DNA of 64,000 nucleotides from Bacteroidota bacterium. Lineage in GTDB: Bacteria > Bacteroidota > Bacteroidia > Bacteroidales > B18-G4. Below, piece after piece: positions 50,801 to 63,899 of the stretch; within the stretch, counting starts at the first letter, position 1; the number at the start of each line of letters is the position of its first letter. A model generated the notes under the pieces. The model saw only the letters and a list, made by a program, of their open reading frames with translations, was not told the DNA's origin and did no database searches. The stretch covers positions 3,315 to 67,314 of the forward strand of contig JABMQZ010000106.1 in assembly GCA_013202965.1 (NCBI GenBank), read 5' to 3'. A program made the translations under genes and the position numbers.

Positions 50801-51349
50801 GCATCCGACTATAATGTCAATCTGGATAAGATCAAAAAGGAAAGTATTCTGATGTATTCCGAAAAAGGGATGGGCAATGGTATCATTGAGGATATCGAAG
50901 ATGTGATTTATGTTGATCAGTCGACTTTCGATAAAGCGGATACTGTCGAAATTGCGGAGGAAGTGAACAAACTGAATACCTTGATGGTTGCTGATAAGCG
51001 GAAATATATTCTGATTGGGCCGGGCCGTTGGGGAACACGTGACCGCTGGATCGGGATACCTGTCAACTGGCCTCAGATCTCAAATGCAGGCATCATCATT
51101 GAAACAAGTCTTGAAGATTTTCCATTGGATGCTTCTTCAGGATCACACTTTTTTCACAATGTCACCTCCATGAACGTCGGATATTTCTCTGTTCAGCCTG
51201 AGTTCGCGAACAGCTACATCAGGTATGATATTCTTGCCGGGCAGAAACTGATCAGTGAAATGAAATACGTGAAGCATATTCGTTTCAAAAAGCCATTGAA
51301 AGTCAGGATGGATGGAAAAAAACGGATTTCAGTGATCACCCTTGAATGA
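47891..51349 (+). CDS. Multidomain protein: N-terminal sensor-like domain + two receiver-like domains + PEP/pyruvate-binding (PPDK_N ATP-grasp) domain + conserved C-terminal domain
   Basis: Sensor-like part: LKELAAINQ...ILPPAWQYPEYTVARIVFG...IEIFY...DEGPFMAEERQLINNL. REC-like parts: KEILLVANLYD... and RVILLVEDSPKY... ATP-grasp signature: GSLGGKGRGIAFIN...IRSSGLFED. No phosphohistidine TSHAA-type motif was seen. Confidence 0.65.
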   Translation: MEKRDRPNKDLKRLQAEAGERLKELAAINQTTQLLSEGKTVEETLARIVDILPPAWQYPEYTVARIVFGKLIFTSANFMPTNWKQQQAFETIDGIKGSIEIFYIREFPDLDEGPFMAEERQLINNLSGLITGYLNSLKGRTLLKEEKDIPGKKSPDILPDKPQVYSRQLLQKFLNKNNYDRDIYHDLMPFKVKEILLVANLYDAYSIEKEGRFSEHVLGEYHQLSLTSIPRITGVSNEQEAMEQLRSKHFDLVILMMGADKKSPIGLSCRIKKEYSYIPVFLLLNNNSDIEYISRRKASTKHIDKVFVWNGESKVFFAMIKHVEDSINVENDTNIGMVRVILLVEDSPKYYSRYLPMLYNIVLEQTRHIIDDVSTDELYKVLKLRARPKILLASNYEEAVDIIDKYKDYLLCLITDVKFERNGKEEPQAGLDLVKYLRENTRHLPIIIQSSEEANADKAYKLKSTFINKNSESLSQDFKSFITHYLGFGNFIYRNDKGQVIAVAKSLKEFERLLKTIPDESLIHHARKDQFSLWLMARGEIQAAKILSPHKVTDFGSPQKIREYLLEIISKFRNEQERGKIVPFEKSAITDDSNIVALMEGSLGGKGRGIAFINTLIYNYDFSQQLPGIHIKAPKTVLIGTEEFEYFMERNGLTELILNEKDYSKIKKAFLKSRLTETMIKRLKMVLVDFKKPIAIRSSGLFEDSLMQPFAGIFETFLLPNSHPDPKVRLQQAMDAIKMVYASVYSEMARGYVEAVHYKIEEEKMAVVIQEVVGNQYDHYFYPHISGAAQSFNYYPVSHMKPEEGFVVAAVGLGKYVVEGEKAFRFSPKYPEIEINSPKDQYKNSQLQFFAVDLEKKEPNLLEGDIAGLARLDIDEAEKQGTLKHCASVYNPDNDQILPGLTHPGPRIVNFANILKYKYIPLAQTIEVVLDVVKEALGSPVEIEFAVDLNKDKNGLASFYLLQIKPLLGSASDYNVNLDKIKKESILMYSEKGMGNGIIEDIEDVIYVDQSTFDKADTVEIAEEVNKLNTLMVADKRKYILIGPGRWGTRDRWIGIPVNWPQISNAGIIIETSLEDFPLDASSGSHFFHNVTSMNVGYFSVQPEFANSYIRYDILAGQKLISEMKYVKHIRFKKPLKVRMDGKKRISVITLE

Positions 51350-51703: not shown

Positions 51704-52564
51704 ATGTATGAACTGATCTCTCTCAAGCTGAAATGCCCTGTTTGCGGGGAGTCGCTGATGGATGACAGCCACCTTGTCGACAATGAAACCAGTATTATGC
51801 TGAATGTGGAAATGGCTGGAAAGAAAGGCGAGATCCGGCTGAGCTCAATATATGGCAGCTATAACTATGTTACGGATGTAGAGATGCCTAAGGGAGAAGT
51901 TGCTAAATTCAGTTGCCCTCACTGTAAAACACAAATTACCTCGGACTCAGAATGCCTTTCCTGTGGTGCCAACATGGTACCCTTTTACCTTGACATGGGA
52001 GGGAAGGTCACGATTTGCTCAAGAAGTGGCTGTAAAAATCATATCGTCGAGTTTGAAGACCTCTCGATTGCATTGAAAAAACTCTACCAGGAATACGGGC
52101 TGGCCGGCAAGGATGACTTCAAGCCTGAGCGTAAAATCACTCCGGTTGAGCAAGCGGTTGATGAAAATAAGGAAATCATCGAATCAGGAACATTTCTGAA
52201 TGCCTATTGCCCGCATTGCGATAAGAGCCTCCTGGAAGATGGCATGCTCAAACTGAAAATCCACAATGGTGAAGAAGGCTTCCTGATGCTCAGCCCATAT
52301 CTGAACGTATTTACCTCCAAGTCGACTATTTTTCTTGCCGAAGAAAAAACTGTTAAGGATATACGTTGCTGCCATTGTAACCAAAGCCTGATCTCTGCAG
52401 ATAAAACATGTGAAAAATGCGACTCTTCAGTGGCAAAGATCGCTATTGGAGCCAGAACAAAACTGATCGATTTCTATATCTGTACAAAGAAAGGTTGCCG
52501 CTGGCATGGCCTCAGTTCGGATGACTTGATTGATATCCGCCTGCAGGACAGCCTTGAGTGGTAA
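51704..52564 (+). CDS. Cys-rich protein made of two copies of an 8-Cys/1-His CxxC module (paralogue 1), function unknown
   Basis: Module 1: C11xxC14...C71xxC74-x9-C84xxC87-x17-C105x4C110xxH113. Module 2: C169xxC172...C222xxC225-x10-C236xxC239-x20-C260x4C265xxH268. Paralogues lie at 59776 and at the N-terminus of the 61501 ORF. Confidence 0.8.
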   Translation: MYELISLKLKCPVCGESLMDDSHLVDNETSIMLNVEMAGKKGEIRLSSIYGSYNYVTDVEMPKGEVAKFSCPHCKTQITSDSECLSCGANMVPFYLDMGGKVTICSRSGCKNHIVEFEDLSIALKKLYQEYGLAGKDDFKPERKITPVEQAVDENKEIIESGTFLNAYCPHCDKSLLEDGMLKLKIHNGEEGFLMLSPYLNVFTSKSTIFLAEEKTVKDIRCCHCNQSLISADKTCEKCDSSVAKIAIGARTKLIDFYICTKKGCRWHGLSSDDLIDIRLQDSLEW

Positions 52565-52567
52565 GTT

Positions 52568-53962
52568 CTACCATTCACCACTTGTAAGATATTCATGAAT
52601 TCCTTTTGCTGCGGTTTTACCAGCACCCATTGCTAATATTACAGTTGCTGCGCCGGTTGCAACATCACCCCCGGCAAAAACACCTCTTTTTGTAGTTTTA
52701 CCTGTTTGCAGATCGGTAACAATGGTTTCTTTTCTTGTGATTTCCAGGTCTGGTGTAGTAGCCGGAATTAATGGATTGGGGCTGTTACCGATAGCAATAA
52801 TTACAATATCTACAGGTATTTTAATATTTGAGCCATCAATAGGAACAGGCCTTCTTCTGCCCGAATCATCCGGTTCGCCAAGTTCCATCCTGATACATTC
52901 AGCTTCTTTTACCCATCCGTTTTCGCCATGAAAAGCAATCGGGTTGGTTAATAGCTGAAAATTAACACCTTCTTCTTCGGCATGGTGAATTTCCTCATTC
53001 CTGGCAGGCATCTGCTCTTTTGCACGGCGATAAATCAATATGGATTCTTCCGCACCAAGACGTAGGGCAGTCCTCGCACAATCCATGGCTACATTGCCTC
53101 CGCCAACTGTGGCAACTCTTTTCCCTTTTGCAATGGGGGTTTTGTATTTCGGGAATAAATAAGCTTTCATCAAATTTGCCCTGGTAAGGTATTCATTGGC
53201 AGAATAAAGTCTGTTTAGGTTCTCACCCGGAATTCCCATAAACCAGGGTAAACCGGCACCTGTGCCAAGAAAAATTGCATCGTATTCCTCCAGTAATTCA
53301 TCAAGGCTTTTGATCATGCCGATCACTGTATCCGTATGTAATCTAACCCCCATTTTAGAAAGAAAGTCGATCTCTTTGAATACAATTGCTTTGGGAAGTC
53401 TGAATTCGGGTATTCCATACACCAGCACACCACCCGGCTCATGCAGGGCCTCAAAAATTTCAACCGTGTGCCCAAATCTAACCAGGTCTGCTGCTGCAGT
53501 GATACCAGCAGGACCGGCACCAACAACAGCCACTTTCTTTCCTGTGGATTTTGGCAGTACCGGTATTTCTATTTCAATATTTTCTCTTTCCCAATCTGCC
53601 AGGAAACGTTCTAACCTGCCAATAGCAACAGGCTCATATTTCTTCCCCAGGATGCATTCTCTTTCACACTGTTCTTCCTGAGGGCAAACCCGCCCACAGA
53701 TAGCCGGTAAGATATTTTTCTCCTTTAACCTGACAATCCCCTCTTTGAATTTTTTTTCAGCTATAAAACCTATAAAACCTGGAATATCTATTTCTACCGG
53801 ACAACCATCGACACATAATGGCTTTTTGCACTGAAGACAACGATGTGCTTCTGCTATGGCTTCTTCAGGGGAATAACCATAAGGAACCTCATTGAAGTTT
53901 TTAATCCGTTCTTCCGGTGGTTGCTCACGCATGGGATTTTTATTTGGAATAATCTTACCCAT
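52568..53962 (-). CDS. GltD/NfnB/SudA-like NAD(P)H oxidoreductase subunit (2x[4Fe-4S] + FAD + NAD(P)H)
   Basis: RCLQCKKPLCVDGCPVEIDIPGFI, CGRVCPQEEQCE, VAVVGAGPAGITAA and VFAGGDVATGAATVILAMGAGK. Confidence 0.85.
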   Translation of the reverse strand: MGKIIPNKNPMREQPPEERIKNFNEVPYGYSPEEAIAEAHRCLQCKKPLCVDGCPVEIDIPGFIGFIAEKKFKEGIVRLKEKNILPAICGRVCPQEEQCERECILGKKYEPVAIGRLERFLADWERENIEIEIPVLPKSTGKKVAVVGAGPAGITAAADLVRFGHTVEIFEALHEPGGVLVYGIPEFRLPKAIVFKEIDFLSKMGVRLHTDTVIGMIKSLDELLEEYDAIFLGTGAGLPWFMGIPGENLNRLYSANEYLTRANLMKAYLFPKYKTPIAKGKRVATVGGGNVAMDCARTALRLGAEESILIYRRAKEQMPARNEEIHHAEEEGVNFQLLTNPIAFHGENGWVKEAECIRMELGEPDDSGRRRPVPIDGSNIKIPVDIVIIAIGNSPNPLIPATTPDLEITRKETIVTDLQTGKTTKRGVFAGGDVATGAATVILAMGAGKTAAKGIHEYLTSGEW

Positions 53963-53963
53963 A

Positions 53964-54779
53964 TCACAACCTTTCTTTTGATATTATTTCTTCTTCAATG
54001 TATGCTTTCCTTCGGTCAAGAACGATATCCCAGTTTATCTTGTGACCATCGAAATGAGGGCCGTCAACACAGGCAAATTTTGTTTCTCCACCTACCTCAA
54101 GCCTGCAGGCACCACACATACCGGTTCCATCTATCATAACAGGATTCATGCTAACAATGGTATTAATACCATAAGGCTTGGTAGTATGGGCTATCTTGTA
54201 CATCATATAAGTACAGCCAACTGCAAAAACCATATCATAATATTCTCCCGATTCCAGGTTCTCTTTTAGCAGGTCATGTGAATGACCTTTTGAGCCGAGA
54301 GATCCGTCAGTTGTACTGTAACGAACTTCATCAGCCACAGATTCAAGTTTTTCATTCCAGTATAGAAGAAACCGGCTTCTGGCCTCCGAATAGCAAACAA
54401 CCTTGTTACCACATTCTTTCAAAGCTTTAGCCAAAGGATATATCGCACCGATTCCATAACAACCTCCAACTAAACCGACAGTTCCGTATTTTTTTATTTC
54501 AAAAGATCTTCCAAGCGGGCCGGTGAATGAAAAAATCTCATCACCGGTATTTAATGCAGCCAGGCTTTGGGTTCCTGCACCAATCTCAAGAAAAAGGATG
54601 CTGATTGTTCCTTGTTCATTATCCCAATCAGCAATGGTAATAGGGATGCGTTCAGCATATTTGTCCGGAATAACAATAACAAATTGACCCGCCCTGGCCT
54701 TCTTTGCAATATCCGGTGCCGCAACAATAAACTCATGGATATTTGGGACAATATGCTCTTTATGTAAAATCTTAACCAT
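53964..54779 (-). CDS. NfnA/SudB/PyrK-like FAD/NAD-binding subunit with C-terminal [2Fe-2S]
   Basis: GQFVIV...RIPITIAD, GPLG, LVGGCYGIGAIYP and GTGMCGACRLEVGGETKFACVDGP. Confidence 0.85.
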   Translation of the reverse strand: MVKILHKEHIVPNIHEFIVAAPDIAKKARAGQFVIVIPDKYAERIPITIADWDNEQGTISILFLEIGAGTQSLAALNTGDEIFSFTGPLGRSFEIKKYGTVGLVGGCYGIGAIYPLAKALKECGNKVVCYSEARSRFLLYWNEKLESVADEVRYSTTDGSLGSKGHSHDLLKENLESGEYYDMVFAVGCTYMMYKIAHTTKPYGINTIVSMNPVMIDGTGMCGACRLEVGGETKFACVDGPHFDGHKINWDIVLDRRKAYIEEEIISKERL

Positions 54780-57129
54780 GTTTCCCTCCTTTTTTATCGA
54801 TAAGCTGTTTCATGTCAGGGATTAGTTTTGACATGGAATTCCCCTGATAGAGAAAATAATCTGGTTCGGGAATCATTTCTATTTTACGCTTCTTCAATGG
54901 AATTTTAATATCAGGCATGGATAACACAAATTTTGATGTTTTCCTGCTGGTTTTATCAATTGACAAATCGAGCTTAGCCGTAATTTCCTCATATATTTCA
55001 TTCGTTTTTCTATACTGAAAGCTTTTATTTTTGAGTTTTCGACTTATATTAGAAAGTATTTGCCATGTTGGCTTTATGAATTCAGGTGCATGAACAGCCG
55101 GATTTATCTGTTTTAAATTTCTTTCAATATTAATAATATGACCATTTGATTCAGTAAAACAATATGCAGGTAATAAGATATCAGCATATTTGGATGTTTC
55201 GGTTATGAACATATTCTGCTGAACAAAAAATTCAAGTTCATTCAATTTTTCATGATCCGGCAGATCACCTTTGAGGAATAATGATTTAAAATTATTCCCC
55301 GGAAGATTACTTATCATTTCATCAGTTGATAATCCTGATACAGGTGAAATATCTATACCCCAAGCCTCTGACCATTTTTTTTCCCCATTTCTGACTTCCA
55401 GAAATCCGGGTAAATATTCCGGGTGCATACCGGTGTAAGTGGCTCCAAAACGATTTCCGTCGTCAACCAAAAACATCATCCCGCAATCAGCGAATTTATT
55501 TAAGGCAAAATGGATATTTGAAAGTAAATTAAAATTATCATTACTTGATGACGATTTAAACAAGGTATCACCTGCAATTATCAGTATTTTTTTTGCTGGT
55601 GCAAGCGATTCGATGATTTTCCTGATCTGTGCCTGTTTGATGCCTGTTGCCGTGGATGCATGTTTTTTATCAATAAGCTTTAAAGCATCGGATATGTCTT
55701 TAGGGAATTTAATGTTTTGCGCGGTCTTGAGGTCTTTTAGTATCTGAAGAAGAAAAATATTTTCTGAGCCCGGATGATATATTATCCGTTCATTCGAAAA
55801 CTGGTATGTTCTGTTTAAATGGGAATGAGCCGTAATAATTTTAGCATCATGATGATATGCTTTCCTGACCCTGTTTTCTATTATGGGATGTGATACCGAA
55901 GCGTTTGATCCAATTATAAAAATAGCGTCAAATCCAATAATTTCATCAATTCCGACAGGCTGAAACCCATGTACTTTTTTAAACAGAGATCGGTCATTGT
56001 AAGTGGGGGAAAGGTCTATATTGTTAGATCCCATAACTACTCTGCAAAATTTTTGCAATGCATAGGAGTTTTCAATCGTATCGTGGGCAGAACCGATTAT
56101 TCCAAAATCATTTCCACTGAATTCTTTAAAATGTTTTGTTATAATATCGATGGCCTGATCCCAGGTTATTTCAAGCCAGGCGCCATTTTTATTGATAAGG
56201 GGTTTTATGATTCGTTCCGGGTGATGTGTAATATCTGCCGGTATAAATTTCCCGCGGATGCATAATTGATCCGGTTCGGTCCTTTTTCCCGGCCTGGGAC
56301 CGATGTTAACAATCCGGTTGCCTTTTGTGTTGATGTTCATCCTGCAACCTACAGAACAAAGTATACATGTAGATGTTGTTGAATCGGTCGGGACACCTAC
56401 CCAACTGCCCATTTTTTCAGAAAGGGAACCAGTAGGGCATACATCTACACATGCACCACAATATTCACAACCTGCTTCTATTTGGGATTCACCAAAAGCA
56501 GTGCCAACCAGGGTAGAATTACCACGCTGCACAAAAGCCAGAACCCCGCTATATCTTTCTTCATTACATATTCTAACACATCTGCCGCAAAGGATACATA
56601 AATTATAATCCAAATCGTAAAAGGGATTATTCTTGATGGCTTGAACATTTCGATAGGTTATGGGGAACCTGATATCTTTTAGGTCAAGATATTCAACCAG
56701 GTCCTGTAGCTCACAACCTCCATTGCTTGTGCAGAAGTTACAACCGGTAGTAACAGTAACCTTTCTTGTGGTATACATGAAATCCTGACATTCCTTTTTA
56801 TCGTTGCATATCAGGCATGAATATGGATGTTCCGAAAGAATGAGCTCAAGAATTTCACGTCTGATGGATTGCAACTCAGGAGATTTAGTGCTTATTTCCA
56901 TCTCATTGGTGACCGGAGTTGTACATGCGGTTGGATAACCTATCATGTTTTTTATCTCCACAATACATAAACGGCACCCACCATAGCTTTTCAAACCTTT
57001 AAGATAACAAAGGGTGGGAATATATATCCCTGCGGACGTAGCCGCATCCAGTACCGTTGAACCTTCAGGAACCTGAATTTGTTTCCCGTCGATTTCAACT
57101 GAAATATATATACCCTTATCTGATTTCAT
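54772..57129 (-). CDS. NuoG-like Fe-S subunit with a molybdopterin-oxidoreductase-fold domain that looks catalytically degenerate
   Basis: N-terminal 2Fe-2S ferredoxin fold (TLCYLKGLKSYGGCRLCIVEI), HPYSCLICNDKKECQ, CILCGRCVRIC, CEYCGACVDVCPTG and Molybdop_Fe4S4 (CILCSVGCRMN...LCIRGKF). No H-cluster motif. No Cys/Sec-His at the FDH active-site position (it reads NNIDLSPTYND). Confidence 0.75.
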   Translation of the reverse strand: MKSDKGIYISVEIDGKQIQVPEGSTVLDAATSAGIYIPTLCYLKGLKSYGGCRLCIVEIKNMIGYPTACTTPVTNEMEISTKSPELQSIRREILELILSEHPYSCLICNDKKECQDFMYTTRKVTVTTGCNFCTSNGGCELQDLVEYLDLKDIRFPITYRNVQAIKNNPFYDLDYNLCILCGRCVRICNEERYSGVLAFVQRGNSTLVGTAFGESQIEAGCEYCGACVDVCPTGSLSEKMGSWVGVPTDSTTSTCILCSVGCRMNINTKGNRIVNIGPRPGKRTEPDQLCIRGKFIPADITHHPERIIKPLINKNGAWLEITWDQAIDIITKHFKEFSGNDFGIIGSAHDTIENSYALQKFCRVVMGSNNIDLSPTYNDRSLFKKVHGFQPVGIDEIIGFDAIFIIGSNASVSHPIIENRVRKAYHHDAKIITAHSHLNRTYQFSNERIIYHPGSENIFLLQILKDLKTAQNIKFPKDISDALKLIDKKHASTATGIKQAQIRKIIESLAPAKKILIIAGDTLFKSSSSNDNFNLLSNIHFALNKFADCGMMFLVDDGNRFGATYTGMHPEYLPGFLEVRNGEKKWSEAWGIDISPVSGLSTDEMISNLPGNNFKSLFLKGDLPDHEKLNELEFFVQQNMFITETSKYADILLPAYCFTESNGHIINIERNLKQINPAVHAPEFIKPTWQILSNISRKLKNKSFQYRKTNEIYEEITAKLDLSIDKTSRKTSKFVLSMPDIKIPLKKRKIEMIPEPDYFLYQGNSMSKLIPDMKQLIDKKGGKHG

Positions 57130-57161
57130 GTTATTTATTATGACAGTTTAATCATAGATTA

Positions 57162-59030
57162 TTAAGATACTATTATAATTGCATCGCCGGCGATAGCATC
57201 AAACCTGCAAATTTCATAACAGGCCCTGCATTTAATACACTTTTCAGGATCAAGGTTATGTGGTTCGCTTCTGGGGCCTGTAATAGCACCGGTCGGACAA
57301 ACTTCCACACAGCGCTGACAACCTGTACATTTCTCCTTTATCACCCTGTATTCCACCAGGTCGCGACAAACTGCCGCAACACAACGTTTGTCTTCAATAT
57401 GTTCTTGATATTCACGGTAAAAATATTTAAGTGTTGTGAGAACCGGGTTGGGAGCAGTTTGTCCTAAGCCGCAAAGAGATCCGTTTTTTACGGTTTTTGC
57501 AATATTTTCAAGTGTTGCAAGGTCATCGATGCTTCCAGTGCCTTTTGTGAATTTCTCAAGTATCTCTACCATCCTTTTGGTTCCGATACGGCATGGCGTG
57601 CATTTGCCACAACTTTCTTTACTGGTAAAATTTAAAAAATACTTGGCCACATCCACCATGCATGAATTTTCGTCCATAACGATCAATCCACCTGAACCCA
57701 TAATCGATCCGGCCTCAGAGAGTGATTCATAATCGATAGGCAGATCAATATGTTCTTCGGTCAGGCAACCACCTGAAGGCCCTCCGGTTTGAACAGCCTT
57801 AAAAGGTTTTATTGTCCCCCCTCCAATATCATAAATTATTTCACGCAATGTAATACCGAGAGGAACTTCAATTAATCCTGTACGCCTTACCTTTCCGACA
57901 AGGGCAAATGTTTTAGTTCCTTTGCTGTTTGCGGTTCCATACTGATTGTACCAGTCACCACCATTTCTCAGAATATTTGGGATTGTTCCCAGGGTTTCAA
58001 CATTATTGATTGTTGTTGGATTACCATTCAATCCTGATAAAGTCGGATATGGTGGCCTGCTTCTGGGCATGCCCCTTTCTCCTTCAATAGAGGCGATCAA
58101 TGCAGTTTCTTCACCACAAACAAAAGCACCTGCCCCTTCTTTAAGTTTTATTTCAAGATTGAATCCGCTATCAAGAATATTCCTGCCAAGTAATCCGGCC
58201 TGTTTCATCTGGGCAATAGCAATGTTAAGTCGTTCAATCGCCAGGGGATACTCGGCCCTGATATAAATGTATGCCTGGTTTGCACCTAAAGCATAAGCTG
58301 CAATGATCATGCCCTCAAGCAATGCAAAAGGATCTCCTTCTATAAGGGATCTGTTCATGAAAGCTCCCGGATCACCTTCATCAGCATTGCATATCAGATA
58401 TTTTATCTTTCCTTTAGCTTCCCGGCAGAATTGCCATTTTTTGTATGTTGGGAATCCGGCACCACCTCTTCCTCTTAAGCCGGATATCCTTATTTCTTCA
58501 ATTACTTCTTCCGGTCCTTTTTCAAAGGCATTGATCAGCCCTGAAAAACCATCCCTTGCAATGTAATGCATGATGTTTTCAGGATCAACAATGCCACAAT
58601 TCCGTAGTACAATACGTTTCTGGTATTTCAGCATAGGAAGTTCCCAGAATGATTTTGTGCCATTAATTGTTTCGATTCCATCACCCAGGTGCGCCAAAGG
58701 TTTGAGTTTGGATTCATCACTGAAGGCAAACTCTTTGATGATCTTTTTAGCCCTGTCAGCATCAACATTATTAAAAGTAAAACGCGATGATCCGGGTTTT
58801 TGGACATCGAGCAAAGGTTCAAAATAACACGGTCCGATACACCCCACTTTTATGGTTTGGAACTTATATTTTGAATTATCCTTGATTTTCTGAATGCTTT
58901 TCCAGACATCACCTGCTCCTGATGCCAATCCGCAAGTTCCCATGCCAACATACACTACCGGATCGGAACTATGCTGAAGCATTTCCCATTGTTCTTGTGC
59001 GGTTTTTTGCAGCTGTTCAAAATCATTCAT
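57162..59030 (-). CDS. NuoF/HydB-like NADH-binding flavoprotein with extra Fe-S domains (Bfu-type B subunit)
   Basis: GLRGRGGAGFPTYKKW, NADEGDPGAF and ESCGKCTPCRIGT. The N-terminal thioredoxin-like region has GTCGLASG...GCIGPCY. The C-terminal region has CTGCQRCVEVCPTG and CIKCRACYEIC. Confidence 0.9.
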   Translation of the reverse strand: MNDFEQLQKTAQEQWEMLQHSSDPVVYVGMGTCGLASGAGDVWKSIQKIKDNSKYKFQTIKVGCIGPCYFEPLLDVQKPGSSRFTFNNVDADRAKKIIKEFAFSDESKLKPLAHLGDGIETINGTKSFWELPMLKYQKRIVLRNCGIVDPENIMHYIARDGFSGLINAFEKGPEEVIEEIRISGLRGRGGAGFPTYKKWQFCREAKGKIKYLICNADEGDPGAFMNRSLIEGDPFALLEGMIIAAYALGANQAYIYIRAEYPLAIERLNIAIAQMKQAGLLGRNILDSGFNLEIKLKEGAGAFVCGEETALIASIEGERGMPRSRPPYPTLSGLNGNPTTINNVETLGTIPNILRNGGDWYNQYGTANSKGTKTFALVGKVRRTGLIEVPLGITLREIIYDIGGGTIKPFKAVQTGGPSGGCLTEEHIDLPIDYESLSEAGSIMGSGGLIVMDENSCMVDVAKYFLNFTSKESCGKCTPCRIGTKRMVEILEKFTKGTGSIDDLATLENIAKTVKNGSLCGLGQTAPNPVLTTLKYFYREYQEHIEDKRCVAAVCRDLVEYRVIKEKCTGCQRCVEVCPTGAITGPRSEPHNLDPEKCIKCRACYEICRFDAIAGDAIIIVS

Positions 59031-59475
59031 AATTACTCAAAATCTGACGTAGTTTAATAACCGACAATCTGCTGTGTATATCGTTATCAACCATCATTAC
59101 CGGTGCAATGGCACAACATCCCAAACATGCAACCCTTTCAAGATCAAATCTGCCGTCTTCCGTAGTACTACCGGGTGTTATCCCAATTTCCATCTGTAAT
59201 GCACTCAGTATAAAATCCCCACCCTGAACATGACAGGCTGTTCCCAGGCAGATCTTTATCGAATGTCTGCCGGGTGGATTAAACTTGAATTGAGAGTAAA
59301 AAGTGGCAACACCATAAATTGTGCTACAGGATATATTCAAATATTCGGAAATTTCTCTAATGGTGTTAGATGGAATATATCCTTCCTGATGCTGAACATG
59401 TTGAAGAATAGGAATCAGGTCTCCTTTACTGCATTCAGGAAAGTGTTTACCAAGCGTATTTAACAAACTGCTCAT
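59023..59475 (-). CDS. NuoE/HydC-like thioredoxin-fold [2Fe-2S] subunit
   Basis: CLGTACHVQGG...CLGCCAIAPVMMV. It overlaps the NuoF-like gene by 8 nt. Confidence 0.9.
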   Translation of the reverse strand: MSSLLNTLGKHFPECSKGDLIPILQHVQHQEGYIPSNTIREISEYLNISCSTIYGVATFYSQFKFNPPGRHSIKICLGTACHVQGGDFILSALQMEIGITPGSTTEDGRFDLERVACLGCCAIAPVMMVDNDIHSRLSVIKLRQILSNYE

Positions 59476-59775
59476 TGTATATTCGAATTTGAGTTTTATC
59501 CAAATTACTTTTATTACAATAAATCCACAATTTGATTTCTGTCAGCTATAACATATTTTAATCAATAAATATAAGAATAATTTATAATGTGAAGAAATTA
59601 TTTAAATTAACTGATATCTTTAATGAGCCATAAAATCTATTTATAATAATTATAAATACAGGGCAATTTATTTTTATACAGCATACTATTTTTTTTTTTA
59701 ATATAATTGCAAACATTAACTTAACTGAGGCTGTGCACATGATTCCACTTAATTGCCTCATAAATATAGTAAATT

Positions 59776-60630
59776 ATGGACGATATTCTAAATGATTTTA
59801 TTTTTTTACGGGTAAAATGCCCGATCTGTGATCATTCCCTTATGGATCAGGAAAACTATGTTGATGGTAAACCGGGAATTAAATTGTTTGTTGAATCTGC
59901 AGAGAATAAAGGAATTATCGTATTGAGTGCTATTTATGAAAGTTATAATTACAGGTGTGATATTCCGATCGAAAGTGGTGATATAGTTACTTTCTCCTGT
60001 CCGCATTGCGGGAAAGTAATTACAAGTAAAACCGAATGCGAATATTGTGAAGCAGCTATGGTACCTCTTGAACTGGATATTGGAGGAAAGGCAAGCATTT
60101 GCTCAAGAAGTGGTTGTAAAGGGCATTTCCTGGAATTTGAAGATGTCTTGCTTGCTTTTAATAAGCTTTACCAGCTTGGTGATTATAAAGGTTCAATTCC
60201 GGAAGGATTAAAAGAAAACGGAGAATCAACAGAAATTATTAAAACAGGGACTTTCCTTAATCCCTATTGTCCGAAATGCAATAAGTCTCTTATAAAAGAT
60301 GGATTGATCACACTGAAAATCATTAACGACAGGAATGAGGAAGGTCTTGTGTTTCTAAGCCCATTCCTGAATGTGTTCACTTCCAGGTCAACAGTATTTT
60401 TAAAGGAGGATCAAACAGTTAAGGATATTATCTGCACCCATTGCAATACAAGTATAATCGATTTAGACAGGAATTGTGAACAATGCGGATCACCTGTCGC
60501 TAAAATAAAAGTGAGTGCCCGCACCAAATTCATCGACTTTTATATATGTTCAAAAAAAGGATGCAGGTGGCATGGGCTGAGTAATGAAGATCTTCATGAA
60601 ATTGATCTTGAAGACAGTATGGAATGGTAA
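59776..60630 (+). CDS. Cys-rich double CxxC-module protein (paralogue 2), function unknown
   Basis: Same motif spacing as paralogue 1: C15xxC18...C75xxC78-x9-C88xxC91-x17-C109x4C114xxH117, and C165xxC168...C220xxC223-x10-C234xxC237-x20-C258x4C263xxH266. About 55% identical by eye, with the same C-terminal DS(L/M)EW. Confidence 0.8.
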   Translation: MDDILNDFIFLRVKCPICDHSLMDQENYVDGKPGIKLFVESAENKGIIVLSAIYESYNYRCDIPIESGDIVTFSCPHCGKVITSKTECEYCEAAMVPLELDIGGKASICSRSGCKGHFLEFEDVLLAFNKLYQLGDYKGSIPEGLKENGESTEIIKTGTFLNPYCPKCNKSLIKDGLITLKIINDRNEEGLVFLSPFLNVFTSRSTVFLKEDQTVKDIICTHCNTSIIDLDRNCEQCGSPVAKIKVSARTKFIDFYICSKKGCRWHGLSNEDLHEIDLEDSMEW

Positions 60631-60664
60631 ATAATGATATTGAGGAAAGATAAAAAAAGTAGAT

Positions 60665-61489
60665 ATGTTTCAGATAAAGAAAAAAGAAACAATGGCAAAG
60701 GGGACGATCGTTAGATTTGATATTGATGCCCCTAAAATTGCAAAAAAGTTAAAACCGGGACAATTTGTCATTATCAGGGTAAATGAGACAGGAGAAAGAA
60801 TTCCTCTAACAGTTGCCGATAAGGATGCATTTGCAGGGATCATAACTATTATCTTTCAGGTTGTCGGGAAAACAACTGCATTGATGAGATCGCTCAATGA
60901 GGGCGATTTTTTATTGGATGTTGTCGGGCCATTAGGTAAACCAGCAGAAGTTGATAATATTGGTACTGTTTTAATGGTTGGCGGAGGTACGGGTGTGGCA
61001 ATTCTTCATCATGTGGCAAAAGCATTTCATGAAGCAGGAAATTATGTTATCGGTATTATGGGTGCCAAGGAAAAAGATATGCTCATCCTTGAAAATGAAA
61101 TGATAGCCATATGCGATGACCTTGTTGTTACAACTGATGACGGGAGTTATGGGGAAAGAGGATTTGTTACCCAGCCACTTGAGAAATACCTGAATGAACG
61201 TCATGATATAAAATTGGTTTATACCATTGGTCCGATTATTATGATGAAGAATGTTGTGAAGCTGACAAAAAAGTTTAATGTTCCGACTTTAGTTAGCTTA
61301 AATCCTATTATGATAGATGGAACAGGTATGTGTGGAGGCTGCAGGGTAAAGGTGAATAACGAAACCAAGTTCTGTTGTGTTGACGGTCCCGACTTTGATG
61401 GTTACCAGGTTGACTTTGATGAATTGCTTAAAAGGAATTCGATGTATTTACAGGATGAGAAAGATTCATTGTTGTTTTCAATCAAGTAA
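60665..61489 (+). CDS. Second NfnA/PyrK-like FAD/[2Fe-2S] subunit
   Basis: GQFVIIRVNETGERIPLTVAD, GPLG, MVGGGTGVAILH and GTGMCGGCRVKVNNETKFCCVDGP. An alternative start exists at 60692. Confidence 0.85.
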   Translation: MFQIKKKETMAKGTIVRFDIDAPKIAKKLKPGQFVIIRVNETGERIPLTVADKDAFAGIITIIFQVVGKTTALMRSLNEGDFLLDVVGPLGKPAEVDNIGTVLMVGGGTGVAILHHVAKAFHEAGNYVIGIMGAKEKDMLILENEMIAICDDLVVTTDDGSYGERGFVTQPLEKYLNERHDIKLVYTIGPIIMMKNVVKLTKKFNVPTLVSLNPIMIDGTGMCGGCRVKVNNETKFCCVDGPDFDGYQVDFDELLKRNSMYLQDEKDSLLFSIK

Positions 61490-61500
61490 AACGAAGAAAT

Positions 61501-63330
61501 ATGTTAGAACAGGATATAAGATATTTAAAGTATAAAACCTATTTAAGTTTTTACTGCCCGCATTGTAGCAACACCTTCAATGTGGAAAGGGCACATGAAA
61601 AGTCATTGATATTCAATGCAAAATGGAAAAATGAAGACCTGGTGTTGAAGCTCAGTCCTTTTCTCGATGTTTTTGATATTAAAACATCTATTGAAATGCC
61701 ACAGGATGAGGTTCTGGATGATCTGTTCTGCCCGCATTGTAAGCAAAGTATTATTGATCCTCATGTTCATTGCGATGAATGTGGTTCCAAGGTCGGTAAA
61801 GCAATAGTATCAGCATATGCCAAGCTCATTCCGTTTTATTTTTGTTTGAAAAATGGATGTGAATGGCACGGCATTACAAAAGAGGACGAAAAGAAAATCA
61901 AGTTAAAAATTCCTCGTCAGCTTATGCCTGAGCAGGATCAGAAATTAAGGGTTAATAATTTTCAGGAAGTACCCTATGGTTATACTACCGAACTGGCAAT
62001 GCTTGAAGCCGGCAGATGCCTTCAGTGTAAAAAACCGAAGTGTGTTGAAGGATGCCCTGTAAATATTGACATACCCGGATTTATTGAATTAATAACCCAG
62101 GAGAAATTTACTGAGGCAGTACACAAAATTAAGGAAACCAACGTTTTTCCGGCAATTTGCGGACGTGTCTGCCCCCAGGAATCCCAGTGTGAAGTATTAT
62201 GTATTCTTGGTAGAAAAGATGAACCCGTAGCCATAGGTCGATTGGAACGTTTTGTTGCAGACTATGAAAGGAAAATGGATCTGGTTGAAATACCTGAAAT
62301 TAAAAAAAATACAGGTAAGAAGATAGCTGTTATCGGTTCAGGCCCTGGTGGTTTAACAGTTGCTGCCGATATGCGTATGCTTGGCTATGAGGTTACCATT
62401 TTTGAAGCCCTGCATGAATCAGGTGGAGTATTAACGTATGGTATTCCTGAATTCAGGCTTCCCAAATCAATTGTGCAATCTGAAATTGATTATTTAATAA
62501 AACTGGGTGTCAGGATAGAACTGAATCATATCATTGGGAATATCCTTACGGTTGATGAACTACTTGAACATTTTGACGCAGTTTATATTGGTGTAGGTGC
62601 AGGATTGCCCTGGTTTATGAGCCTTGAAGGTGAAAGCCTGGGGAATGTATTCTCGGCCAATGAATATCTCACCCGTATGAACCTGATGAAAGCCTATAAA
62701 TTTCCCGAGTATGACACACCTATGCCACATGGCAATCATATTGCCGTGATCGGTGGCGGAAATGTGGCCATGGATTGTGCCAGAACGGCAAAGCGTACCG
62801 GTGCATCAGAAGTGACTATCGTATACCGAAGATCACGCCATGAATTACCGGCCAGGACCGAAGAAGTGCACCATGCAGAAGAAGAAGGTATAAATTTTAA
62901 GCTTCTTACATCTCCTACCCGGTATATCGGCACAGACTCAAGTATAATCAAGTCCATAGAATGTATTAGAATGGAACTTGGCGAACCAGATGCTTCAGGA
63001 AGAAGAAGACCGATACCTATTGAGGGTTCCAACTTTATCATGGATTGCGATATGGCAATTGTTGCCATAGGAAACGGTCCCAATCCGATATTGTTCCAGT
63101 CAACTCCGGATTTAAAACTTAATAAAAGGGGCTATATCGAAGTAAATCCTGATACTATGGAAACCTCCAAAGAGTTTGTATATGCCGGCGGCGATATTGT
63201 AACCGGAGCTGCTACCGTTATTCTGGCAATGGGTGCCGGAAGGATCGCTGCCACAGCTATGCATAAAAAGCTGACAGCCATACAGGAGAAGGCGAAAAAG
63301 AAGGTGGTGCCTAAGAAGAAAAGCGAATAG
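61501..63330 (+). CDS. Fusion protein: single CxxC module (aa ~15-125) + GltD/NfnB-like oxidoreductase (aa ~145-609)
   Basis: N-terminal module: C19xxC22...C77xxC80-x10-C91xxC94-x20-C115x4C120xxH123, which has module-2 spacing. LSPFLDVFDIKTSI and FYFCLKNGCEWHG align with the free paralogues. The rest is NfnB-like: RCLQCKKPKCVEGCPVNIDIPGFI, IAVIGSGPGGLTVA and YAGGDIVTGAATVILAMGAG. Confidence 0.85.
   Translation: MLEQDIRYLKYKTYLSFYCPHCSNTFNVERAHEKSLIFNAKWKNEDLVLKLSPFLDVFDIKTSIEMPQDEVLDDLFCPHCKQSIIDPHVHCDECGSKVGKAIVSAYAKLIPFYFCLKNGCEWHGITKEDEKKIKLKIPRQLMPEQDQKLRVNNFQEVPYGYTTELAMLEAGRCLQCKKPKCVEGCPVNIDIPGFIELITQEKFTEAVHKIKETNVFPAICGRVCPQESQCEVLCILGRKDEPVAIGRLERFVADYERKMDLVEIPEIKKNTGKKIAVIGSGPGGLTVAADMRMLGYEVTIFEALHESGGVLTYGIPEFRLPKSIVQSEIDYLIKLGVRIELNHIIGNILTVDELLEHFDAVYIGVGAGLPWFMSLEGESLGNVFSANEYLTRMNLMKAYKFPEYDTPMPHGNHIAVIGGGNVAMDCARTAKRTGASEVTIVYRRSRHELPARTEEVHHAEEEGINFKLLTSPTRYIGTDSSIIKSIECIRMELGEPDASGRRRPIPIEGSNFIMDCDMAIVAIGNGPNPILFQSTPDLKLNKRGYIEVNPDTMETSKEFVYAGGDIVTGAATVILAMGAGRIAATAMHKKLTAIQEKAKKKVVPKKKSE
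61555..61869 (+). other. Extent of the CxxC module (first Cys to the conserved His) inside the fusion ORF
   Basis: Coordinates derived from residue numbers C19 to H123 of the 61501 ORF. Confidence 0.7.
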
Positions 63331-63510: not shown

Positions 63511-63598
63511 CTCGCAAAGACCGCCTAGATACACGCAAAGATCACAAAGAACATTTCTAATCTTTGCGGGCTTAGCGCTTTTTTGCATACTTTGCGTG
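63511..63598. repeat. Palindromic GCAAAG/CTTTGC element (REP-like)
   Basis: CTCGCAAAGA (63511) and CACGCAAAG (63532) face TCTTTGCGGG (63561) and CTTTGCGTG (63590). Only one copy lies in this window, so whether it is dispersed in the genome is unverified. Confidence 0.5.
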
Positions 63599-63613
63599 GA
63601 AGAATTAAAATAG

Positions 63614-63669
63614 GGGTGAGGCCTGGGGTGTGGGGCATGAGGCATGAGGTTTGCGAATTGCTGGCTGAG
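63614..63669. repeat. Tandem heptamer array (GGGTGAG GCCTGGG GTGTGGG GCATGAG GCATGAG GTTTGCG AATTGCT GGCTGAG)
   Basis: Read directly, with the GnnTGrG phase kept over 8 units. Confidence 0.7.
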
Positions 63670-63715
63670 GGGTTTTCTCACTTTGTTCGAAATGACAACA
63701 TCTAATTTTTAGAGA

Positions 63716-63756
63716 GGGAAATGGCGGGATGCGCACAGCGCGTCCCGCCATTTCCC
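63716..63756. repeat. Near-perfect 19-bp-stem palindrome/hairpin (GGGAAATGGCGGGATGCGC-ACA-GCGCGTCCCGCCATTTCCC)
   Basis: 14 bp of perfect outer stem, one G-T wobble, 4 bp of inner GC stem and a 3-nt loop. Confidence 0.85.
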
Positions 63757-63899
63757 CTTGTTTAGATAAGGATTTTGTCTTCTCGAAAGAACCCCGATGG
63801 TGATCGGGGTGATTGAGAGATCCCCTCAGCTTACTTATGCTAAGAAAAATATTTTACCGGACACCACTGATTCCGGAATCACTATTCATGGGGAATTCG

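Follow-up and report, generated by a model that had tools for sequence, protein, structure and literature searches.

The DNA considered in this study is a window of 64,000 nucleotides, taken as a whole, from contig JABMQZ010000106.1 of a Bacteroidota bacterium, and the subject is an island of eight genes for redox proteins toward its end. The genes are listed in Table 1 along with their neighbors. I will refer to their products by letter: E, F and G for the proteins related to NuoE, NuoF and NuoG (BfuC, BfuB and BfuA among the Bfu enzymes), A and B for small and large subunits of the NfnSL type, Z for the Cys-rich proteins, and ZB for the fusion of a Z module to NfnL. GBG stands for the fused, Stn-type BfuA of related genomes, and L-numbers for related loci in the census described below.

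An initial annotation, made from the sequence alone, had suggested that these eight genes could form one redox system. All eight open reading frames (ORFs) lie where it put them and on the strands it gave, and the junctions are as it described: E and F overlap by 8 nt (59023-59030), as do G and A1 (54772-54779), F and G are separated by 32 nt (57130-57161) and A1 and B1 by 1 nt (53963), and the stops of the convergent genes for Z1 and B1 are 3 nt apart (52565-52567). The spacing between A2 and ZB is 11 nt.

Table 1. Features of the redox island and its upstream neighbors, in window coordinates.
Feature	Position (nt)	Strand	Length	Assignment
Glutamate dehydrogenase (GDH) gene, divergent from P	46346-47701	-		ELFV_dehydrog and ELFV_dehydrog_N domains
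P, receiver/PPDK_N protein, upstream neighbor of Z1	47891-51349	+	1152 aa	Pfam
Z1	51704-52564	+	286 aa	Two-module Cys-rich protein (ORF)
NfnL-1 (B1), GltD/NfnB-like large subunit	52568-53962	-	464 aa	Fer4_20 and Pyr_redox_2
NfnS-1 (A1), PyrK/NfnA-like small subunit	53964-54779	-	271 aa	NF004862
G, BfuA/NuoG-like	54772-57129	-	785 aa	Pfam
F, BfuB/NuoF-like	57162-59030	-	622 aa	Pfam and PDB relatives
E, BfuC/NuoE-like	59023-59475	-	150 aa	2Fe-2S_thioredx
Divergent intergenic region between E-F-G-A-B and Z-A-ZB operons	59476-59775		300 nt	AT-rich
Z2, first gene of Z-A-ZB operon	59776-60630	+	284 aa	Two-module Cys-rich protein
NfnS-2 (A2), PyrK/NfnA-like small subunit	60665-61489	+	274 aa	NF004862
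ZB, Z::NfnL-2 fusion	61501-63330	+	609 aa	Cys8 module and NfnB-like core

The eight-gene feature is real and under selection. Its gene order, P>Z>B<A<G<F<E<Z>A>ZB>, is found whole or cut by contig ends in six further assemblies (L018, L024, L028, L067, L079 and L001), just the opening Z>B<A< is seen in L046, and the convergent layout of Z and B recurs in L028, L067 and L091. The island is made up of three linked units: the E-F-G-A-B operon, the Z-A-ZB operon, and P with the second Z. To regard the eight genes as one indivisible system does not fit the relatives, which show separable units placed side by side; in most of them a fused Stn-type E-F-GBG accompanies P>Z>A>ZB in place of the split E-F-G-A-B. 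The extent must be redrawn as well, since the eight genes stand but the functional neighborhood reaches further upstream, to P and the GDH gene.

These comparisons draw on a genome census in which the best 80 of at least 581 relatives' loci were kept, all of them from metagenome-assembled or single-cell genomes (Bacteroidales, Lentimicrobiaceae, Ignavibacteria, Chlorobiota and Cloacimonadaceae), and on a metagenome scan. The census is biased to the two-module Z of the FCB (Fibrobacteres-Chlorobi-Bacteroidetes) group, and the scan represents one subgroup of single-module proteins.

Enzyme subunits and the E-F-G-A-B operon

The families assigned at the outset to the enzyme subunits all hold up in profile searches, with scores far above chance. 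E is a standard thioredoxin-like [2Fe-2S] subunit (2Fe-2S_thioredx, E 4e-49; NF005722, 158 bits, over the cut-off), encoded adjacent to F. F (Complex1_51K, 1e-45; NADH_4Fe-4S, 7e-34) is laid out as an N-terminal thioredoxin-like domain, a NuoF core with FMN and NADH sites and [4Fe-4S] cluster B1, the ligands of the B2 site, and a C-terminal 2x[4Fe-4S] domain recognized by Fer4 dicluster matches at residues 562-612. In the PDB it comes closest to B subunits of Nfn-Bfu/Stn enzymes, with 743 bits for both 9bov_B and 9n5u_B and 732 for 8oh5_B, and in all three cases the alignment spans the N-terminal domain, the core and the C-terminal domain, with the Cys columns conserved.

Bifurcating BfuB proteins have been distinguished by the motifs DEGDPGAF(M) and GAGAFVCGEE, as against DEGxxGxF/K and GAGAY in non-bifurcating homologues, the comparison set being NuoF, HoxF and FdsB (Schut et al. 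2022, PMC9304861, Supplementary Figs 9-10). F has DEGDPGAFM and GAGAFVCGEE. Within it, the Bfu signatures appear as ADEGDPGAFMNRS, KEGAGAFVCGEETALI and H-x5-C-x4-C; the BfuB motifs of the NADH site and the FMN site are CNADEGDPGAFMNRS and KEGAGAFVCGEETALI, respectively, and the B2-site stretch, EHIEDKRCVAAVC, has the H-x5-C-x4-C spacing and matches positions 525/531/536 of the reference, a match for the His and the last two Cys of a site to which a further Cys upstream (Cys438) also contributes. The proposal that the NuoEF-like pair is a Bfu core is thus borne out by the signature motifs and the B2-site ligands. Judged by these residues, E and F make up a genuine Bfu-type core, predicted to couple tightly the reduction of NAD+ and of ferredoxin by a third substrate. 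The reading of E-F-G as the N-module of complex I (NuoEFG) is ruled out, since F has extra Fe-S domains at its N- and C-termini; TIGR01959 and TIGR01973 score the E-F-G proteins under their cut-offs, and in the window no membrane nuo genes adjoin E-F-G.

G matches Fer2_4, NADH-G_4Fe-4S_3, Fer4_Nqo3, Molybdop_Fe4S4 and Molybdopterin, and its cluster domains are complete for a NuoG/BfuA protein. It combines a [2Fe-2S] site and a His-ligated [4Fe-4S] motif with an extra CxxCx5C, 2x[4Fe-4S], the Molybdop_Fe4S4 cluster, and a vestigial pterin domain. Its best relative in the PDB is the FdsA of R. capsulatus (292 bits), yet a formate dehydrogenase of the FdsA/FdhF type is ruled out. The stretch with the Mo ligand (Cys or Sec, then His), of the type CARVCH, falls in a gap of the alignment of G to 6tg9_A, the motif C.R.CH is absent from all of 120 orthologues of G (0/120), and G has no Pfam match to the C-terminal Molydop_binding cap (PF01568). 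Because the ligand motif and the cap domain are missing, G has no catalytic site and is taken to be an electron wire whose pterin domain is vestigial.

The extra CxxCx5C, a duplication just after the motif of the His-ligated cluster, occurs in 118 of the 120 orthologues and marks a distinct clade of BfuA. In G itself (residues ~101-139) it reads HPYSCLICNDKKEC, then 15 residues, then CNFCTSNGGCELQ. It could be an additional cluster or a clade-specific interface.

The two NfnAB-like pairs of the initial annotation are supported by full-length alignments and cofactor motifs. A1 and A2 match NF004862 with 353 and 391 bits; both align end-to-end with NfnI-S of P. furiosus (5jca_S, 278 and 319 bits) and are also collinear over their full length with NfnA of T. 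maritima (4ylf_A). The motifs of NfnS, a protein of FNR-like fold, are known from a review of the family (PMC6405883) and comprise ERxPxT (strand at a-FAD), GGxGxA (NAD binding) and DGTGMCGxCRx10CV (Asp/Cys3 [2Fe-2S] cluster). A1 has ERIPIT, GGCYGIGA and DGTGMCGACR-x10-CV, by which it is assigned FAD, an NAD(H) site and the Asp/Cys3 [2Fe-2S] cluster, and A2 has ERIPLT, GGGTGVA and DGTGMCGGCR-x10-CV. The two GltD/NfnB-like proteins match TIGR01316 with 579 and 575 bits and align with NfnB of T. maritima (4ylf_B), B1 end-to-end (610 bits) and ZB through its core (564 bits). B1 contains the 2x[4Fe-4S] domain Fer4_20, FAD, and the NADP(H) site of Pyr_redox_2. Both B1 and ZB have GIPEFRLPK, with the arginine (PEFR) at flavin N5, a residue of no discriminating value, since it is also present in the non-bifurcating StnC. 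By sequence, A1/B1 and A2/ZB are canonical NfnS/NfnL pairs, for which oxidoreduction of NADP(H) dependent on both Fd and NAD, with bifurcation at b-FAD, would be predicted.

A2 and A1 are only 40% identical, while B1 is 61% identical to the core of ZB and ~40% to the GltD domain of the Stn-type fusions. This pattern of identities indicates that the A1/B1 pair on the minus strand is not a fragment of a fused StnC but represents a lineage of NfnSL that a Bfu operon has taken in. A recent fission of a Stn-type GBG into E-F-G-A-B is ruled out on the same figures, together with the mere 25% identity of G to the corresponding parts of GBG in related genomes. The second pair is well conserved: A2 is 78-87% identical among loci of Bacteroidales, Lentimicrobiaceae and Ignavibacteria, and when loci of Bacteroidales are compared with those of Ignavibacteria, the identity is 75-87% for A2 and the ZB core.

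The E-F-G-A-B operon recurs in Bacteroidota, in a record of Zixibacteria and in unassigned metagenome contigs. More than 120 clusters of G homologues were found (44-60% identity), with source names that include Bacteroidota, Zixibacteria and Planctomycetes. A directly follows G in every context examined, and B comes next in all but one. G-A-B, preceded by F or E-F where the contig is long enough, is present in L018, L024, L028, L067, L001 and L091, the last having (F)-G-A-B followed by a convergent Z. The Zixibacteria record (L092), a short contig, has G-A-B with the same 8-nt overlap of G and A as in the window. L111 and L112 have the full E-F-G-A-B, the genes overlapping or tightly spaced, and in L111 an A-B-Z operon converges on it (PntAB< E-F-G-A-B> <Z<B<A).

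Two of these loci have further features. The arrangement in L111:1554-16496 has PntAB divergent from E-F-G-A-B, then the convergent A-B-Z, with a B of 514 aa and with Z last and unfused, and then genes for an alcohol dehydrogenase and rubrerythrin. In L001:3020-9719, on a contig of 1.14 Mb, E, A and B are split into fragments (86, 92+191 and 273+173 aa, respectively), and the neighboring Z-A-ZB and E-F-GBG genes are intact. The split genes could be assembly frameshifts, or the split operon could be decaying in a genome that also has the fused Stn-type enzyme.

The order of the genes and the domains they encode lead me to infer that E-F-G-A-B is a single enzyme of five subunits. Because BfuA (G) has no catalytic site, A/B is the operon's sole candidate for the module that handles a third substrate. 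One may suppose instead that the genes encode independent enzymes that happen to be co-located: two free NfnSL enzymes and a Bfu enzyme for which the third-substrate module is encoded elsewhere or the substrate is unknown, all co-regulated for NADPH supply, with Z a subunit of none of them. The units are after all separable, most genomes having P>Z>A>ZB with the fused E-F-GBG and some E-F-G-A-B alone; L094 has E-F-G-A without B; both A/B pairs are fully canonical and could act by themselves; and the neighboring GDH and (in L111) PntAB point less to a single machine than to a regulon that balances NAD(P)H. I consider this account distinctly unlikely, on three grounds. The BfuA site is absent in 120 of 120 orthologues while A and B follow G in distant lineages, with reading frames overlapping or abutting. 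The extra conserved Cys motif in the clade of G suggests an added cluster or interface. Finally, the covalent fusion of Z to NfnL and to NuoE-like subunits is hard to square with a protein that is no subunit.

The closest described systems are StnABC of Sporomusa ovata and NfnABC of Caldicellulosiruptor saccharolyticus and Thermococcus sibiricus (8oh5, 9bov, 9n5u), which belong to Nfn-Bfu Type 1. Their BfuC and BfuB are the nearest solved relatives of E and F, and the Bfu motifs and the Cys pattern at the N-terminus are shared. They resemble the window also in having a NuoG/Fdh-like BfuA with an incomplete pterin site (Csac NfnA, like G, has been described as a wire for electrons in which the pterin domain is vestigial) and an NfnL-type FAD/NADP(H) module in the gene set. 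In Type 1, however, an NfnL-like domain is inserted into BfuA, giving a protein of roughly 960-1180 aa, and NfnS is lacking, whereas the G of the window has neither Fer4_20 nor Pyr_redox_2, carries the extra CxxCx5C, and is accompanied by NfnL and NfnS as separate genes. Of the twelve types in the 2022 classification of Bfu enzymes, none combines ABC with NfnSL (PMC9304861).

The NfnSL enzymes (T. maritima 4ylf; P. furiosus NfnI, 5jca) share with both pairs in the window the two-gene layout, collinearity and cofactor motifs, but here one pair lies inside a Bfu operon, and the other comes with a Cys16 partner protein and with an NfnL that bears a Cys8 module. The four Nfn architectures recognized in a 2019 review include none with a Cys module (PMC6405883). 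The only described parallel to a Bfu core with a complete NfnSL is Bam-Bfu (class II benzoyl-CoA reductase BamB-I), in which a Bfu core is proposed to act in series with a second bifurcating flavoprotein, HdrA; unlike the case considered here, the second module is HdrA and the substrate is benzoyl-CoA at a tungstopterin site. Targeted full-text searches of the literature found no description of the Z module, of a split NfnSL-Bfu or of the arrangement of the island, in keeping with the earlier impression that the arrangement was new.

The Z module and its partners

The Z module is a beta-rich domain of ~115 aa with eight invariant Cys. The initial annotation was right that a Cys-rich module recurs in the island, but the copies number five rather than three, because Z1 and Z2 each have an N-type module followed in tandem by one of C-type and the fusion contains one of C-type. 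In Z1 these run from Cys11 to His113 (nt 51734-52042) and from Cys169 to His268 (nt 52208-52507), and in Z2 from Cys15 to His117 (nt 59818-60126) and from Cys165 to His266 (nt 60268-60573). ZB begins with a C-type Cys8 module (Cys19-His123, nt 61555-61869), after which comes the NfnB-like core (aa ~140-609). Z1 and Z2 are 54% identical and have 16 conserved Cys; N-type and C-type modules are ~27% identical to each other, and the module of ZB shares 36-38% identity with those of C-type in Z1 and Z2. Among 28 diverse N-type modules, the pattern of the eight invariant Cys is CPxC, ~56 residues, CPxC, 9 residues, CxxC, 17 residues and C-x4-C, usually with a His after. Also distinctive is the motif LSSxYGSY or LSPxLNVF.

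In the AlphaFold2 model of Z2, a linker of low confidence (aa 135-157) connects two beta-rich modules, whose pLDDT is mostly 72-97. A Foldseek search with this model against the PDB gave nothing at E <= 1e-3, the best of the weak matches being Zn ribbons of E. coli topoisomerase I (9gdh_F and 9gda_F, E ~2e-3, TM 0.14), and the best match to Z in a sequence search of the PDB had an E-value of only 0.25. Several Zn-ribbon families were tried (DZR, Zn_ribbon_6, HypA and the MetRS knuckle). Z2 scores 27.8 with Zn_ribbon_6 (cut-off 25) and 27.8 with DZR (27.3), covering 20-40 residues and single knuckles as opposed to the 115 aa of the module; the matches mostly come without any individually significant stretch, all those of Z1 are under the cut-off, and the similarity to HypA is weak and sub-threshold. 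Rubredoxins have a fold of ~50 aa in which two CxxCG knuckles bind Fe, and no rubredoxin family is among the Pfam or NCBIfam matches of any Z protein at E <= 0.01.

The C-terminal repeats of topoisomerase I are likewise tandem four-Cys ribbons, but they are basic and bind nucleic acid, in contrast to Z, which is acidic (median pI 5.5) and tied to redox enzymes by its genomic context. A Zn-ribbon that binds nucleic acid, or a transcription factor, is an unlikely identity for a protein that is acidic and fused to enzyme subunits.

All 184 homologues of Z2 are unnamed or bear generic and contradictory labels, some of them misnomers such as "methionyl-tRNA synthetase" and "topoisomerase Zn-ribbon". 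An exhaustive search with a hidden Markov model through 1.84 billion representatives gave 412 clusters (50% identity, E <= 1e-3). With no family-specific profile and no match in the PDB by sequence or fold, Z is, on these comparisons, an uncharacterized Cys8 domain family, as the initial annotation had supposed of its CxxC protein.

Among 57 informative loci, which have enough sequence downstream, the context there is Z>A>ZB in 44, with a ZB fusion of 590-622 aa after Z>A, the window-type Z>B<A< in five, and Z>E>F>GBG in three. The Stn-type GBG fusion (~1233 aa) is present in 27 of the 80 loci. A second kind of fusion, present in more than 120 protein clusters, attaches the N-type module to NuoE-like proteins at their C-terminus; Phycisphaerae, Sedimentisphaerales and candidate division LCP-89 are among the source names. 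The order of genes in these operons is E::Z, a NuoF::GltD fusion, a small NuoG-like protein, and a protein with a Glu_synthase domain. In one locus of Lentimicrobiaceae (L057) such an operon lies immediately upstream of P>Z>A>ZB, so that both contexts are adjacent. The dominant contexts thus seem to have a common denominator, a complex with a GltD/NfnL-type module, a NuoE-type module, or both. The linkage of Z to Nfn and Bfu genes implied in the initial annotation is conserved, both in gene order and in the independent fusions to NfnL and to NuoE-like subunits.

The four-gene NuoE::Z operon was seen in L086, L088, L089/L090, L109/L110 and L057:2-6310 (Phycisphaerae/Sedimentisphaerales-type, LCP-89 and Lentimicrobiaceae). 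Its NuoF::GltD protein has 1044-1098 aa (by ORF calls), the NuoG-like protein ~225 aa and the Glu_synthase protein (PF01645) ~530-543 aa. It looks like a putative NuoEF-linked complex resembling glutamate synthase.

The four Cys knuckles of a Z module would form two Cys4 metal sites, most likely of structural Zn. I regard Z as a metal-stabilized, probably Zn-containing, adaptor of complexes that contain NfnL or NuoE, because it is fused to two types of subunit, comes first in its operon, has Cys4 knuckles and is acidic, and because there is precedent in the Bfu enzymes themselves: in the solved structures, Zn occupies Cys/His sites that had earlier been predicted as Fe-S clusters. The idea that the CxxC protein is an acceptor, donor or scaffold can accordingly be narrowed, in that nothing was found in support of a donor or acceptor and a structural adaptor fits at least as well.

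Small adaptors with Cys knuckles that bridge or stabilize catalytic subunits, and that are fused to their partners in some lineages, are known from complex I (NDUFS6) and from archaeal thiolase/HMG-CoA synthase (the DUF35 scaffold). I mention these as leads only, analogous in type of role; Z has two Cys4 sites per module, and no similarity to NDUFS6 or DUF35 turned up in the PDB sequence and Foldseek searches.

Three other functions for Z need to be considered. The main rival is a redox-active carrier with Fe(Cys)4 centers of the rubredoxin or desulforedoxin type, serving as a relay or as a dedicated acceptor or donor for NfnSL in place of ferredoxin or NAD, analogous to the unknown partner postulated for NfnII of P. 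furiosus. The knuckles CPxC and CxxCG suit Fe(Cys)4 as well as they do Zn, small electron carriers are acidic as Z is, and the module is fused to the N-terminus of NfnL, beside Fer4_20 with its two [4Fe-4S] clusters. Rubrerythrin genes come after the cluster in nine loci and abut a single-module Z in L097, and the presence of two adjacent types of NAD(P)H transhydrogenase suggests that one of them has a different partner. Against these points, no Z protein matches a rubredoxin profile, the only matches being to Zn-ribbons, under or just at their thresholds; the Cys/His sites of solved Bfu enzymes hold Zn; and fusions to CBS pairs and a cyclase are atypical of electron carriers. Rubredoxin-type centers have potentials near 0 mV, while the Nfn and Bfu couples operate at -280 to -500 mV. 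Because of this distance in potential, such centers would be sinks rather than relays, and the Fe(Cys)4 reading is disfavored. I judge it unlikely.

Alternatively, Z could be a regulatory sensor (a Zn-thiolate redox switch or a sensor of a ligand or metal) that tunes NAD(P)H-linked Fe-S flavoenzymes, possibly under the control of P. Fusions of the N-type module to signaling domains speak for this: CBS pairs in P0168, P0190, P0191 and P0205, adenylate cyclase together with AAA_16 in P0176, and in P0240 a receiver plus a truncated NuoE; Mur-ligase-like domains occur as well in these rarer fusions, to which P0221 and P0208 also belong. P is often directly upstream of Z, and a flexible, two-module architecture is predicted. 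Still, a protein encoded by the first gene of an enzyme operon and fused to catalytic subunits in hundreds of clusters has the marks of a stoichiometric subunit, and neither Pfam nor Foldseek gave evidence of a ligand pocket or a match to a known sensor family. A sensor role seems to me very unlikely.

Four metagenome loci bring up the last of these functions, a factor for metal handling or maturation, i.e., a chaperone of Zn, Ni or Fe-S clusters for NuoE/NfnL-type or hydrogenase proteins. In L098, L099, L103 and L108, genes for single-module Z lie within hyp clusters, between hypA or hypB and hypE, hypD or hypF, and Z has the weak, sub-threshold likeness to the HypA Zn-ribbon noted above. Such factors are rarely fused to their client subunits, and the hyp clusters of L103 and L108 adjoin NuoE/F-type genes, so that the link to Z may run through a partner of the NuoE/HoxE type. 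NfnSL (4ylf, 5jca), moreover, has no Ni or Zn site that would require a chaperone. I consider maturation a highly improbable role.

In the hyp clusters Z lies on the opposite strand (L098:3166-5236, L099:6637-10728, L103:4354-6844, L108:6971-13335), divergent from hypA in L098, L099 and L103 and from hypB in L108, where hypA was not identified; hypE, hypD or hypF is on the other side. A HoxEF-like fusion and a HoxU-like gene adjoin the cluster in L108, and NuoE/F-type and EtfAB/HdrD-like genes are near that in L103.

A possible redox-balancing neighborhood

The joint reading I put forward, tentatively and as somewhat short of probable, is that the island is a redox-balancing neighborhood of three units: a five-subunit enzyme E-F-G-A-B, an NfnSL-type enzyme Z2-A2-ZB, and Z as a Zn tether. 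In E-F-G-A-B, the NfnSL pair A1/B1 would fill the role that the NfnL domain fused to BfuA has in StnABC and NfnABC. NADP(H) would be handled at the FAD of NfnL, and electrons would pass from the two [4Fe-4S] clusters of NfnL through the chain of clusters in BfuA to the BfuBC site, which would couple NAD(H) and ferredoxin, with the NfnS branch as a second outlet to NAD(H). The conservative form of this reading has the enzyme catalyzing an Nfn-type reaction, with NADP(H) presumably entering at NfnL. Z2-A2-ZB would be a transhydrogenase of the NfnSL type, with Cys8 on its large subunit, made together with a free two-module Z2.

Z may be the docking or tethering subunit, because its fusion partners split by type, N-type modules going with NuoE/BfuC-type subunits and C-type modules with NfnL-type subunits. 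A free protein with both modules and a flexible linker could hold modules containing NfnL and NuoE together. The tether may link B1 with E inside E-F-G-A-B, or it may link NfnSL with an adjacent Stn-type enzyme.

A bolder version has E-F-G-A-B bifurcating in tandem, first at NfnSL and then at BfuBC, with the Z modules as tethers or extra redox centers by which modules containing NfnL and NuoE would be gathered into supercomplexes of this kind in several phyla. The high-potential electron of NfnSL would go to NAD+ via NfnS and the low-potential electron into the BfuA chain, after which BfuBC would bifurcate again. The net reaction, by my own bookkeeping, would be about 4 NADPH + 3 NAD+ + 2 Fd(ox) -> 4 NADP+ + 3 NADH + 2 Fd(red). 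If this were true, the acceptor would be driven toward roughly -650 to -700 mV, and the reaction run in reverse would make NADPH at half the usual cost in ferredoxin. I think it quite unlikely.

Several considerations weigh against the joint reading. Co-transcription alone is no proof that E-F-G-A-B forms one complex, and a complete bifurcating NfnSL on a second bifurcating core is thermodynamically odd, with Bam-Bfu the sole proposed precedent. The fusions of Z show shared membership in a complex and not which subunit it contacts. Operons of the E-F-G-A-B type without Z nearby are seen in L092 and L112, and L094 has E-F-G-A with neither B nor Z, so Z is not obligatory for the enzyme. Finally, the occurrence of Z with CBS pairs, adenylate cyclase/AAA_16 and Mur-ligase-like domains and in hyp clusters falls outside a pure Nfn/Bfu tether.

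The loci without Z have a feature of their own. A gene for a 177-aa, Crp-like protein with a cyclic nucleotide monophosphate (cNMP)-binding domain comes after E-F-G-A(-B) in L094:12460-12993 and L112:11467-12000, and it may be an alternative regulator of the Z-less operon type.

Electron bifurcation is the means by which strict anaerobes balance NADH, NADPH and ferredoxin without a cost in ATP. What is new here is a variant arrangement of known enzyme kinds and an uncharacterized domain family. Catalogues treat Nfn (NfnSL) and Stn/Nfn-Bfu as alternatives, usually mutually exclusive, and the paper on the Stn structure notes that most species carry one or the other. In genomes related to the window, however, Nfn and Stn-type enzymes are encoded adjacently, and many uncultured members of the Bacteroidales, the Ignavibacteria and related lineages encode both solutions next to each other. 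E-F-G-A-B would be a Bfu subtype outside the published table, with a whole NfnSL as its apparent substrate module and, if that is so, with two bifurcating flavins in one enzyme. Independent fusions have joined the Cys8 family to NfnL and to NuoE-like proteins, and the family is present also in the putative NuoEF-linked operons resembling glutamate synthase and in hyp clusters. Once the ligand of Z and the complex E-F-G-A-B are defined, the bifurcating enzymes would gain a new accessory component and possibly a new stoichiometry, and a definition of the Z family would give a name to hundreds of proteins now "hypothetical" or mis-named.

Neighboring genes and intergenic DNA

P has a weak receiver domain (aa 376-459) and an ATP-grasp domain, PPDK_N (aa 602-975); ~370 residues at its N-terminus and 175 at its C-terminus have no family match. 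It is directly upstream of Z in 36 of the 60 loci with at least 4 kb of upstream sequence, and I take this conserved neighbor to be a putative regulator. The GDH gene has counterparts, with products 76-91% identical to its own, divergently upstream of P in at least 27 related loci, and it is a conserved neighbor, not a subunit. Loci with the triplet GDH<-P->Z include L002, L010-L015 and L022-L028. A gene for a 151-aa rubrerythrin comes after Stn-type GBG or Z-A-ZB in nine loci (L003:19749-20204, L001:19885-20340, L074, L083, L080, L052, L066, L070 and L071), and in L097 a DUF2231-rubrerythrin fusion is divergent from the single-module Z. GDH, PntAB (in L111) and rubrerythrin together suggest NAD(P)H balance as the physiological theme.

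Regulatory signals were sought in the window with little result. Matches to a Rex-type operator number five, as compared to 6.2 expected, none of them in the intergenic regions, and a scan for sigma-70 promoters and terminators gave scores not above those of shuffled sequences, the sigma-70 consensus being uninformative for Bacteroidota. A scan of the whole window at the Rfam gathering thresholds found no match. This includes the non-coding stretch of ~670 nt after ZB, where nested inverted repeats lie at 63532-63830, among them a GC-rich hairpin of 19 bp (63716-63756) and a flanking inverted pair of 17 nt (63664-63680 / 63814-63830). These repeats may serve as a terminator or may represent a small repeat element.

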